From NCBI RefSeq assembly GCF_037042905.1, contig NC_087245.1, positions 9,860,001-9,924,000 of the forward strand: a stretch of 64,000 bases of DNA. Reading direction: 5' to 3'. Under the pieces are notes generated by a model. That model worked only from the letters and a program-made list of their open reading frames with translations. It was not told the DNA's origin and searched no databases. The DNA comes from Lytechinus pictus. Its lineage: Eukaryota. Position numbers and translations under genes: made by a program. Positions within the stretch are counted from its first letter, which is position 1, and the number at the start of each line of letters is the position of its first letter. Of this stretch, positions 19,001 through 25,000 are shown one piece after another.

Positions 19001-22000
19001 AAATCCATCACTATTTATCAACAAGTTTGACTTTGCGCAATATAAATACCCATAATTATTATTTTTTTAGGGGCCTACCACATGAAAGACAAGAAATTTG
19101 AACCTTTGTTGTGATCTTTATATAAGCGACATCATCAGGAATTTCTTATTTGCATGAATAGTCATTAAGAAATTTTCCCTCATTTGTTATTATATCCCTT
19201 TCATCTTGTTCATGTGGTTCACATTTAGTAGTACAAATATTGTATGCTGCAATTGTGTTTCCTTTGTTTTGCAAATGTTTTAGATTTGTTATTGCAATTA
19301 AAGTGAAATACACATTTTTTCATTGTTAATTTGAGTTTATTTTACAGTGATTGCCATACACTAACTGTATATCCTGGGGGCCGTTTCATAAAGCTATTTG
19401 TAAGTTAAGAGCGACTTTAAGAACGACAGGTGAACCTTTCTTACTAAACCATCGCCAATGAACATTTTGGTGTACAGTATACTATTTACAAGAAAGGATC
19501 ACCAGTCATTCTTAAAGTTGCTCTTAACTTACAAACAGCTTAATGAAACACCCACCTGATTTCCTAAAATGATATTCAAAGGAGAGTAAGTCATTGATCA
19601 AAAAACTGTTTGAAAAAATTCTTTATGATTTCTCATTTTTTTATTAATGCCAAAAGCAGAATTCTCTTCATTGGCTGCTGTTATTCCTCACTTTTGAATG
19701 GCCTTCTGCGTGGTATTTTGTCAGAGGAAAAGGAAGAATTTGGCTTTTTTTATTAAGGCAATCAATGAAAAAAAATCATGCTTTATGTGAGGACAGATCA
19801 GTATAGGAAACATATTTTTCTAATAAATCTTACCATGTACAACCTAATAGCATAATTCCTCAGCTTTCACATGCCATTTTTGTTTTCTGCTTCCCCAGTT
19901 ATCAAAGTTTTTGTCCTGCTGTCCCTCCTTTTCCAGTGGGTGTTTCATAAAGCTTTTCCTAAATTACAAACGAATTCACGAACGACTGCTGACTCTTTCT
20001 TGTACTAAATGATAATCTCTATTTAGCTGACTTAGCACCTAACAACATGTTCTAGTCGTGTATATAGTCGTGCGTGAAGTCAAATATGAAACACCCATCA
20101 ACTGTCCTTTCACCATAATACCTTTCCTGACTTTACCTGTTTAATTTGTTATTGACCCTGTGTATGTGTTTGTGATGATGTCTCTAGGAGCTCTCAGAGA
20201 CAAGTAAACAGCTAGCAGAGATGACTGGAGCTAAAGATGTAGCCCCTGATTTGGATGGTCTAGACCAGAGAGCTGAACACCGGTTGCAAACAAACGTAAA
20301 TCTTCACGTTGCAACGATCATACTATTTATTCCAATTAACTTTCATCTCATTGTGTTTGTTGCATGTTGTAGATTATGGTGATGGGATTATGGCCTGAAT
20401 ATCCTGGAATGCTTATACTTGGCCATGCATTTTTCTTTTTATCTCTCTGTTAAAATGATGTTTTAATAAGACTTCGTCTTTCATTGCCTTTGAAATGAGG
20501 GGGTCATGTTTATTTTTAGGTAAAGAATTCCTCCCTCGGCTCTTTTTTTTTTTTTCTCAATATAAAAAAAAATGATACTGGCATACCATAAAATACTGTG
20601 ATTAGAATGAAGTGCTCCGCTCCTATATCTCAGAATAGACACAAGAAATGCTAAAACACTCAGTGGATTTTGGTGCATTATAAATCTATCATTATTATGA
20701 TATCTTGTGATATAGGGGAAAGCAAAGTGCTGTACATAAATGGCTTAATTAACTTCAATCCCTGGAAGAAATGTAGAATTCTTACAAATGCATGGTTAAT
20801 GCGAGAGGTTTGCTTTTAAAATGAAGCATGCTCATCCAGTCATGGTTGGCAAACTGGCACCATCAGGACACCATCTGACCGGTCTACAGGAGTTTTATAC
20901 AAAACATTTGCTATCCATTGCAATCAATCACAAATTTGCTAATGATAACGTGAATTTAATTTTAAAAGATATACATATTATTTTTGTTATGAAAAGCTTA
21001 CCAGCATTCAATTACCAAAATGAACATTTTAACCACTTGCAAGACTTATATAATTGTTTTGCAATTGATTTCAAATCTCTTTCAATGCGTCCTACTTATA
21101 CTTATATGTACAATGTAGTCACTTTAGTAGTTTTCTCTGCATACATGTATCTGATTATGGCTGTGTGGAATCATTTTATGTTCGTCTTTCCTTCCTCTCC
21201 ATGCATACATGTATTCAGCAGGAAATTAAAGATTTGTTATCATGATAGGAAATAGATTAGTCAAATTAGCTTAACATATCTATGGTGTCATGGCAGGTCA
21301 ACTTCATGGTATTCCTACATTTGGTTCATTTCATTCAAAATTGTAAAATTCTATTTATTTCATTTTCAATCTTCTGAGTAACTGTATATGTAGTATAAGA
21401 GTTTGATTACTCTATATGTATTGCTACTTGATGATTACAGCTTGAATTTGTTTTCTCAGTATAATATTTCATTTTCATTGCTGGCTTATGGAAGGATGAT
21501 CTTGGTCCTGTTTTATTGATCCCTTACAAGTAAACATCTGTTAAAAGCTATTGAAATCATGTCTGTTGATTGGCTGAGATCAACTTTGTCATTGAAATGG
21601 CCATTTTAAGAGACTTCATGAAACATGATCTTGGCCTTGTTGCCAATCTTGCACTTATGTGTATCATTGATTATTATATCATTTCAATGCACCCTATCAC
21701 TTCTCATTCTATTTGCACTCCATTAATTATTCGAAAAAAAAATTTACAATGAGGCTGTCATTGAAAAAGTTACATCAAATAATTATTAAAATTCTTGTTA
21801 CTTATTGCAAACGATAACTTTTTTCATTTATGTAATAATTCACTCATAGTGGGTCATGTTGGAGTTAACATTCGTCATGTTTGTGTATTTATTGTTTGGA
21901 TGGTAATGTAATATCTTATCAGAATTCTAACATACTAAAATGTGCAATGCACTTATGTAAAAATCTTATCACTATGTCCACAAACACTTAATTAAATGAA

Positions 22001-25000
22001 AGGAGGAAAGGAGAAGACCTCGTAATAGAATTATATACAAACCAGTTAAGCTTGATGTGTTCCTATTAGCATTGATCATTATCGAACAACAAGAATACAT
22101 GCACTTGGATGCATACTGTGAATGCGGATAAAAATTATTATTCTAGAAGGCATATATTATAAGCCTGTGCTCAGAATATTGCAGTCTGGGTAAGGAGCCG
22201 TGTTCTGTATGAGTAGTTTAGATCTTGAGCTGGTGCTCTTTAACATAACTGACGTATTGCCTCAAAACATTGTCTTAACCCTAAAAGGACTCAACACTTC
22301 TCGCGATATTTCCGAAACACAAAAAGCTAACTCCGCAAAATCTTATTACTCTTTTCTTTGAAGTCTCGCGCAACTTTTGAGACCAAATTCGCGACATATG
22401 GGTATAGCATGACTATAGCATCACATGACTTTTCACAAGACAATGTCATGGCGAAAATGGCTCATTTCTATAATGTGGGTATAAAGCCAATGGGAGATGA
22501 AATTCATAAAAGGGTGATTATATTTCGTTCTAATTGGTCTGCATGATTAATTTAGGGTTTAATTTAGTTGTTAATTGATCTGTAATCATTTCCGTTGAAA
22601 AAACAAAAACAAAGAAATACATCAGGAAAAAAATTGGCTTTTGCAATTTTTGTGTGTGGAAACCTTTAATTTAGACTACAAAGATGACATCTGCAAAAAA
22701 GAAGAAAATTTGAAGTGAAATTGGGTGTTAAATATGCAAATAATGTTTTTCATTAATGAATTTGCATATTTTATTCATGATAAATAAAAAATAATTATTT
22801 TCAGAATTTGTATTTTATACTAGCTTGTAGTTTATGTGGTAAAGAATGTGCGTGCCAAATTTCGACGCGATCGTGTGAACGGCGGCCAAGATCTGCAGGG
22901 GGCCATCATGCCCCCCCCCCCCAGTCCTTAATACATCTCAAATAGCCCAGTCCTTTTAGGGTTAAAACATAGTTTCTAATAATATCAAATTGAATCAGGT
23001 CTGCATTACTTTAGATTTCTTCATTAAAAACATAATGAATAAAGGAACCTGCCTACCATTTACAATTCAGAAAATCTTGAATATATACAATTTTTGTGAC
23101 ATTTGTACTTGTTCTGCTTGTAAAAAAATATATAGCCTTTGTGTACAGATAAACTACTCTCTCTCTTTCTCTTTTTGTTTGTGTGATTTATGAGTTTATT
23201 GCATAAATTGAATCTGACCACACATTATTTTGCATTGCAGGACTTGACACAGACCAGTAAACAGCTGGCTGAAGAGACTAACCCTAAGAAAGCTAGTCGG
23301 ACAGATGTTGATGAAGCACAAGAAGTAAGAGAGACTCTTGAACAAGTCGCTCGACAAAGGTAATTTATCTCAATCATTGTACATAGATTTACAATCACAC
23401 TTATGCAACACTCTAACACAGATCTAACATTTTGTTGGTTTTCATGTGAAATGTGTGTACCGGTAGTTGGCTCTGACAGGGGTCCATTTTGATCAATATA
23501 CTGTGTCTATACTGCCAAACTATTTCAACTTATTCTTATTAGTTGTTTTTTCAGGTGTGACATAGGACCAAGATTTAATGTGACACTAAAAGAAAAAAAA
23601 ATTCAAACTTAAAGCCAGATACTTATTTGAATTATGTAATTAGAATGTTGTCTATCCTTGATTCAACAGCAGAATCATTTTTCAAAGGAACAAGTCCAGC
23701 TGGATGTTTCGTAATGCTATTTGTAAAGATATGCACAGCTTTATGCAAAACTTGAGCATGCTATTAGGTTCTAAGTCAGCTATATACATGTATATGTACA
23801 GTATTTCATTTAGCACAAGAAAGGGTCATCGGTTGTACATAAAGTTATTTGTAACTTACGAATGGCTTTATGAAACAGACTGGTATTGTTCTTTTTAGTT
23901 TTGTGTTCTATGGTGAAGATACTGAGATACACAAAAACCTAGGGGGATCCATGGATCCAAAATCCTTCAAAACAAGAAGGTTTTTGACAGTTTTGGAATT
24001 GGAGCAAGAGACTGTAATTTCTTATCATCATTATTTTGGTGTTTTTTAGGTTGATATCCCTTGGTGAAGATCCTGAAAGGCACAAAGACCTTGGAGGGTC
24101 CCTAGATGCAAGGAACAATGGTGTACATGATCCTTCTAGACAAGGAGCTAATAATCTTCTTGGAGAGGAGATAGATCCATCAGAGAAAGAGAGGACAGCT
24201 TTCATGAATCTCATGGGTGGGCAAGAAGGAGCAGATAAAGAAGAATTTGGTAAGATTGTCATTATATCAAGAATTGTCTTTCTTTCTTTATTAATTTTTG
24301 TTGATTTATTGATTGATTTAGTTAGTTTAGTTAGTTAGTTAGTTATTATCTTATGTCATATATTTTTTGGGGGGGTCACTCTTGGCAATTTACATACCAG
24401 ATGTTTGTAAAGATATGTGTAACCCTAACAGCTAACTTTATGAAGTGAACCCCAGATCTATATTGTTTGATAAATCTGGCTTATACCTTGGTCACATTTG
24501 TTCTACGGCGGCCGTACGGCGAGTCGAAAACAGCCGTTTTAACATTTTTTTTTGTACCAGCTACATATAGGTGGTTTGAATAAAAATGAATAAAACGACT
24601 GTTTTCGACTCGCCGTACGGCCGCCGTAGAACAAATGTGACCAAGGTATAAATTGATTTTTTAAAGTGTTTTTTGCCTGTAAATTAATAACCAGGGGATT
24701 GACAGCTCTGTGACTTTTCAGAGGGACTGGGTAACAAAGATTGATACCTTATCAAAGGGCATGAGTATATAGAGACTTGATTTCAAAGACAAGTTACTTG
24801 CACACTAGATCATTTCCCAATTAAGTTTTTATTGTCCCTTGAGCGTAAATTCCTGTTTTGATGAAAATTGATGAAAATAATTCAGTGTAATTTCTTTAAA
24901 TTGGTTATATGAAAAGATAACAAAAATTGTGTTAAAAATTAACCAAGCTCATTGCAAGCTGTATAGGTTAATCATGTGTAGGTTACATTCAAGCTAGATC

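Follow-up and report, generated by a model that had tools for sequence, protein, structure and literature searches.

An optional, duplicated helix exon after the BAR domain of the ICA1 gene in the sea urchin Lytechinus pictus

INTRODUCTION

Are two neighbouring exons that begin alike spliced as alternatives to each other, or can both enter the same transcript? This question is raised by the ICA1 (ICA1/ICA69) gene on the + strand of a 64,000-nucleotide stretch of the Lytechinus pictus genome (NC_087245.1, positions 9,860,001 to 9,924,000; hereafter the window, from whose first letter all positions are counted). Two homologous exons, 8a and 8b, follow exon 7, in which the BAR domain ends. An initial annotation of the window described them as mutually exclusive exons, with 8a ending at a phase-2 donor at 20282. 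As a fallback, it described 8a as an in-frame cassette of 108 nucleotides (nt) ending at 20295. We found that 8a is almost certainly spliced through the 20295 donor, either as 7-8a-8b-9 (590 or 602 residues) or, when skipped, as 7-8b-9 (554 or 566 residues). The best overall explanation, to which we give a probability of about 0.85, is that 8a is a duplication-derived optional cassette that may tune the ICA69 tail.

RESULTS

Exons 8a and 8b are a duplicated pair

The domains of the encoded protein agree with the name ICA1 that the initial annotation had chosen. We found an Arfaptin-type BAR domain (PF06456, residues 30-257, E = 6e-85) and a C-terminal ICA69 domain (PF04629, residues 269-582, E = 2e-22, above the cut-off). 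Exon 7 has 1 match in the genome. The segment at 20188 is directly preceded by AG and is entered in phase 0, as is exon 8b at 23241. At their starts, the two exons share 8 of 12 residues and, at the nucleotide level, 25 of 36 positions, and a duplicated exon pair after the BAR domain is therefore present as described. The first 12 residues of 8a scored 39 against those of 8b, and the next best segment in the window, 8b itself aside, scored 26 (n = 127,928 translated 12-mers). The exons are 108 nt (8a) and 119 nt (8b) long. No third helix unit was found between exons 7 and 10, where the next score was 27 versus 55 to 57 for the known units.

The donor of 8a lies at 20295

We compared exon models built with either end of 8a. 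The models encode 546 residues with a 95-nt 8a alone, 554 residues with 8b alone, and 590 residues with a 108-nt 8a plus 8b. The remaining three combinations stop early, at 309 (95-nt 8a plus 8b), 317, and 281 residues. The frame arithmetic of the initial annotation was thus correct for single and double inclusion through 20282. With its end at 20295, 8a is frame-symmetric (phase 0-0) and has no stop.

In contrast, the 20282 donor itself found no support. Scored against the donor consensus, it matches 4 of 9 positions and none of the four at +3 to +6, the lowest of the 13 sites compared. The 20295 donor matches 6 of 9 positions, including 3 of 4 at +3 to +6, and the 11 other donors of the gene range from 5 to 8. 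None of the proteins retrieved has an 8a that ends at 20282. The GT at 20283 lies within an Arg-Leu pair that is conserved in echinoid 8a and mirrors the join of 8b to exon 9. This pair may be a relic of an old donor or a copied exon 9 start.

Protein records include or skip 8a but keep 8b

To the letter, four models from the window match the RefSeq Lytechinus pictus ICA1-like isoforms X1 to X4 (XP_063951728.1, XP_063951731.1, XP_063951734.1, and XP_063951740.1). Isoforms X1 and X2 include 8a, and X3 and X4 skip it. The 602- and 590-residue proteins contain 8a, ending at 20295, plus 8b; the 566- and 554-residue proteins contain 8b only. The 12-residue difference within each pair is exon 1b, a 36-nt phase 2-2 cassette after the first coding exon, which explains isoforms X1 and X3. 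Similar 12-residue length differences also occur in L. variegatus and S. purpuratus records. The fallback claim of a 108-nt cassette is thereby upheld. Models with 8a only (546 and 558 residues) had no match among the 185 proteins compared, and shorter proteins, searched in case an 8a-only fragment was among them, yielded 2 matches that cover 20 to 22% of the query and are uninformative.

We next counted units across echinoderms, leaving aside ENA/Logan fragments too short to cover the region. Both units are present in 44 of 57 proteins, 8b only in 11, and 8a only in 0, with 2 fragments. Co-inclusion is thus the commonest state, which is contrary to mutual exclusion. Nine of the 14 named species (echinoids, asteroids, an ophiuroid, and a crinoid) have both inclusion and skipping forms annotated; the other 5 have the inclusion form alone, which incomplete retrieval may explain. 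Seven Logan proteins on contigs of 2.2 to 2.7 kb have both units in one open reading frame. Judging from the contig sizes, these seven probably derive from spliced transcripts and are independent of RefSeq.

Putative RNA contigs keep 8b joined to exon 9

We aligned RNA over 17200-27400 with permissive settings, using three raw runs (about 6% of each) and a contig set, X1, which was guessed to be RNA. The 8b-9 joint is present in a contig of the set and in one read of run X10. The 9-10 joint is present in 1, 3, and 2 reads of the raw runs and in the contig set. One contig joins exons 6 and 7 and ends just past exon 7, where 8a and 8b diverge. The next contig starts exactly at 23241 and is continuous through 8b and exons 9 to 11. 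Exon 7, the intron, and an 8a ending at 20282 all terminate in G, and an 8a ending at 20295 terminates in C. A contig start exactly at 23241 therefore calls for a preceding exon that does not end in G, as 20295 provides. Read as assembly-graph behaviour, the break and the restart would fit a cassette 8a ending at 20295.

These data bear on mutual exclusion through 20282, possibly as a minor isoform only. In its favour, a GT is present at 20283, a 95-nt 8a keeps the frame into exon 9 while double inclusion shifts it, and the two exons are homologous and similar in length. Nevertheless, 20282 is the weakest of the 13 donors, the downstream constitutive unit is missing from none of the 57 echinoderm and 34 hemichordate proteins, and the contig runs unbroken from 8b into exons 9 to 11. 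Contigs drop rare variants, and a minor 8a-only isoform could escape them. We rejected mutual exclusion, which we consider very improbable, since 8a and 8b join in frame and 8b is never bypassed.

In run X10, the bin 20269-20609 has a depth of 53 to 56 bases. This would fit two reads on the last 27 nt of the 108-nt exon, four 14-nt reads, or other sources, and we did not use it as evidence. A 187-nt contig of the set, at 20296-20482, begins on the first intron base past the 20295 donor. It is consistent with a boundary at 20295 and is possibly a fragment of excised intron. The introns of ICA1 also carry high-copy interspersed repeats with inverted ends (19376-19560, 19935-20060, 22315-22950, 23800-23870, and 24500-24660), which attract thousands of reads of the RNA runs in both directions.

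8a is conserved across echinoderms and has counterparts in hemichordates

The initial annotation had named conservation of the 8a reading frame as a check. We found the helix unit of 8a (unit A) in all five echinoderm classes. Over the first 20 residues (47 between-class pairs, 11 species), identity is 0.80 for unit A and 0.35 for the unit of 8b (unit B). Unit B has decayed in crinoids and keeps its helix pattern in the other four classes. We asked whether 8a could nonetheless be a decayed pseudoexon or a chance match, given that no 8a junction read is among the 15 of 165 junction rows listed. Its conservation across classes, better than that of 8b, refutes this idea, as do its presence in RefSeq and transcript-derived proteins and a score far above the window background. 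We regard the chance that it is correct as negligible.

Three hemichordate species have two optional units ahead of one constitutive unit. Among 34 hemichordate proteins, all four combinations occur (ABC 10, AC 8, BC 8, and C 8), and the constitutive unit is absent from none. Over 13 residues, the first hemichordate cassette is 0.78 identical to echinoderm unit A and 0.51 to unit B. Each hemichordate cassette also bears a hydrophobic-acidic motif that resembles the downstream LISF.

In amphioxus, fish, coelacanth, and mollusc ICA1 proteins, we found one unit. Within the first 120 matches, the amphioxus, mollusc, and fish proteins longer than 400 residues lacked a second unit. Of 150 distant representatives, 62 could be anchored, and likewise none of these had one, the best score being 6.3; on this scale, nine of ten known second units score 11.7 to 30, and the tenth, that of Anneissia (3.7), would escape detection. 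In several outgroups, the spacer from the helix unit to the LISL-type motif holds an unrelated cassette. This acidic spacer cassette is found in amphioxus, abalone, snail, and octopus ICA1, and a spacer lengthened by splicing thus recurs across several phyla.

Taken together, the protein comparisons suggest how the cassette may have arisen. Residue changes at the joins of the outgroup cassette would fit a phase-2 intron. The ancestral exon was probably phase 0-2, like 8b, and a duplicate would therefore have needed a phase-0 donor for co-inclusion. This was proposed for exon H2d of vertebrate COE/EBF genes, a tandem duplicate of an asymmetric helix exon that is reported to be included compulsorily (Daburon et al. 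2008, PMC2394523; here and below, papers are cited for the parts of their text that were available). We think it probable that a single duplication occurred in the common ancestor of echinoderms and hemichordates, giving a single ambulacrarian origin, and the third copy suggests a second duplication in hemichordates.

Alternatively, the protein that includes 8a could be the one that chiefly functions, with skipping as tolerated leakiness and the second helix as an unregulated spacer. Records of inclusion outnumber those of skipping (44 versus 11), 5 of 14 named species have inclusion only, conservation is far higher in unit A than in unit B, which has decayed in crinoids, and near-mandatory inclusion has a precedent in H2d (PMC2394523). 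However, 9 species, drawn from four classes, have annotated skipping isoforms, hemichordates have all four cassette combinations, unit B keeps an intact helix pattern in four of five classes, and counts of records are not expression levels. We judge leakiness unlikely, though far less so than mutual exclusion.

The duplicated unit is the first helix of the ICA69 domain

The initial annotation placed the change in a linker between the BAR domain and the ICA69 region. The placement after the BAR domain holds, but "linker" is imprecise. The Pfam ICA69 model starts at residue 269 and the helix unit at 277; what is duplicated is the conserved helix with which that domain opens. It is a predicted amphipathic helix of about 13 residues, with a helical hydrophobic moment of 0.41 to 0.54 across all groups. 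Position 12 holds Leu or Met in all 11 A units and a polar residue in all 11 B units.

In AlphaFold monomers of both isoforms, the first unit prolongs BAR helix 3 to residue 288 or 289 (predicted local distance difference test [pLDDT], about 66 to 69). The second unit is a separate helix at residues 314-324 (pLDDT, about 52). Modelling unit A together with two BAR copies gave a score of 0.00 with the alignment unused, and we draw no verdict from it. A sequence search found no solved ICA69 structure; the closest solved fold was the arfaptin-2 BAR domain.

A clathrin-box-like motif and candidate regulatory sites lie nearby

Exon 9 begins with a motif (24050-24067, + strand) that lies 30 to 45 residues past the helix unit and is conserved across animals. 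The pattern Leu-hydrophobic-x-hydrophobic-Asp/Glu/Gly is present in 26 of 41 distant homologues versus 2.4 in shuffles; the urchin motif, LISLG, ends in Gly instead of Asp or Glu. We take it to resemble a clathrin box, and clathrin binding is putative. Several mollusc proteins also have an acidic Phe-Gly-Pro-Phe motif, which we liken to adaptor-ear ligands.

Downstream of 8a, a TGCATG lies 66 nt 3' of the exon (0.08 expected per 150 nt) and is a single candidate hint of regulated splicing. A TGGTG follows at 20377 (0.2 expected per 150 nt). Both are candidate splicing-regulator sites, putatively for Rbfox and Esrp. The terms ICA1 and ICA69 did not appear in the six available supplements of PMC5703972, which concerns Esrp and includes sea urchin, where other identifiers are possible.

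Table 1. Positions of ICA1 exons and related sites in the window
Feature	Position	Strand	Basis
First coding exon (coding part)	7074..7087	+	Exon model identical to RefSeq proteins
Exon 1b, 36-nt phase 2-2 cassette	7921..7956	+	Its addition gives the exact RefSeq 566- and 602-residue proteins
Exons 2-6, N terminus and most of the Arfaptin/BAR domain	11676..17451	+	Gene model, Pfam, RefSeq identity
Exon 2	11676-11759	+	
Exon 3	12688-12796	+	
Exon 4	13862-13934	+	
Exon 5	15076-15199	+	
Exon 6	17253-17451	+	
Exon 7, end of BAR domain, phase-0 donor	18690..18914	+	Exon 6-7 joint in a contig of set X1
Exon 8a, 108-nt phase 0-0 cassette, helix unit A and conserved tail	20188..20295	+	RefSeq-identical 590- and 602-residue models; five echinoderm classes
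Proposed phase-2 donor 20282, use not supported, inside conserved Arg-Leu codons	20281..20286	+	Weakest of 13 donors
TGCATG (20361) and TGGTG (20377), candidate splicing-regulator sites 3' of 8a	20361..20381	+	Motif occurrence
Exon 8b, constitutive, phase 0-2, helix unit B and acidic spacer	23241..23359	+	8b-9 joint; in 55/55 classified echinoderm proteins
Exon 9, LISLG motif at start (clathrin-box-like)	24050..24249	+	Gene model, contig, homologues
Exons 10 (25613-25861) and 11 (26975-27243, stop), remainder of ICA69 domain	25613..27243	+	Gene model, Pfam, contig

Other features of the window

A (TTTC)n microsatellite of 676 nt lies upstream of ICA1 (2674-3349). On the - strand, at about 41545-54622, is a tetraspanin gene (PF00335) with two homologous large-loop exons, with ends near 43636 and 43886 and each beginning Leu-Glu-Cys-Cys-Gly. 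Its last coding exon likewise comes as a homologous pair, near 41626 and 41886. Both pairs seem more promising than 8a and 8b as mutually exclusive or alternative terminal exons.

DISCUSSION

We conclude that 8a is a duplication-derived symmetric cassette that is optional in echinoderms. Several points weigh against this reading or against parts of it. The 7-8a, 8a-8b, and 7-8b joints, like 8a-9, are not among the 15 of 165 junction rows listed, the others of which are mostly repeat noise, and exon depth in the raw reads is only about 1 to 3. RefSeq XP records are predictions whose RNA support is assumed. The orthology of the echinoderm and hemichordate cassettes rests on 13 residues, without a tree. 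The unit is modelled with moderate to low confidence, and monomers cannot show docking in the dimer. Finally, according to the available text of PMC3865253, a fragment of the rat C-terminal domain, its first 83 residues, failed to pull down PICK1. By position this fragment includes the unit, which makes direct PICK1 binding by the unit unlikely. Membrane contact or packing within the dimer may be likelier, and we hold this tentatively.

What would the cassette do? On our reading, 8a arose by tandem duplication of the single exon after the BAR domain, and whichever unit comes first would fill the position where BAR helix 3 ends. Most likely, judging from the models, inclusion swaps the BAR-adjacent helix, adds a spare helix, and displaces the motif. 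Unit A, which is more conserved and more hydrophobic, would take the place of unit B at that position, unit B would remain as a second, loosely tethered helix, and the LISL motif would lie 36 residues farther from the BAR dimer. In mammals and fly, ICA69 forms a heterodimer with PICK1 at the trans-Golgi, where the two act in the budding of secretory vesicles (PMC3635866). Inclusion might tune how the ICA69/PICK1 BAR dimer contacts membranes or partners as secretory granules bud there, which we consider possible, at somewhat less than even odds.

We looked for similar arrangements in known systems. RefSeq ICA1-like isoforms of L. pictus and other echinoderms already annotate 8a as included or skipped, and 8a is therefore known in that form. 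The record names are silent on its duplication of 8b and on its sharing between echinoderms and hemichordates. A literature search, judged for most hits from the listing, found no description of 8a or its duplication, within a coverage that left out most subscription journals. Rat and mouse ICA69 share the Arfaptin-type BAR domain and the ICA69 domain, or ICAC (PMC3865253, PMC3635866, and PMC10213502).

The closest precedent is COE/EBF H2d, also a tandem helix-exon duplicate with a new phase-0 donor that allows in-frame co-inclusion (PMC2394523). H2d is reported as compulsory, however, whereas 8a is annotated as skipped in 9 species; the protein class also differs, and hemichordate ICA1 has a third copy. 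Homologous exons with mutually exclusive splicing (Hatje et al. 2017, PMC5740500; Pillmann et al. 2011, PMC3228551) are likewise neighbouring, homologous, and similar in length, and at the protein level the BAR-adjacent helix is likewise swapped between ICA1 isoforms. By the criteria in the available text of PMC5740500, the 8a/8b pair differs, because 8a and 8b join in frame and 8b is never bypassed. Thus, 8a is precedented and is not a new kind of system.

A further, more speculative idea is that 8a is an ancient, cell-type-regulated switch, possibly acting via TGCATG, that sets the number of helices and coat motifs per ICA69/PICK1 dimer and so controls dense-core vesicle budding. Such a switch would be more than 500 million years old. 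We consider it rather unlikely. If true, the number of helices and motifs per dimer would be one or two in echinoderms and one to three in hemichordates, and the idea would draw attention to a helix and a clathrin-box-like motif, both unstudied, that are also present in vertebrate ICA69.

In ICA1, an asymmetric duplicated exon may have been made into a cassette and still be optional, unlike COE H2d. The locus is a natural experiment in which repeated duplication and strong conservation mark a short helix behind the BAR domain, and the clathrin-box-like motif close to it, as probably functional parts of the ICA69 tail.

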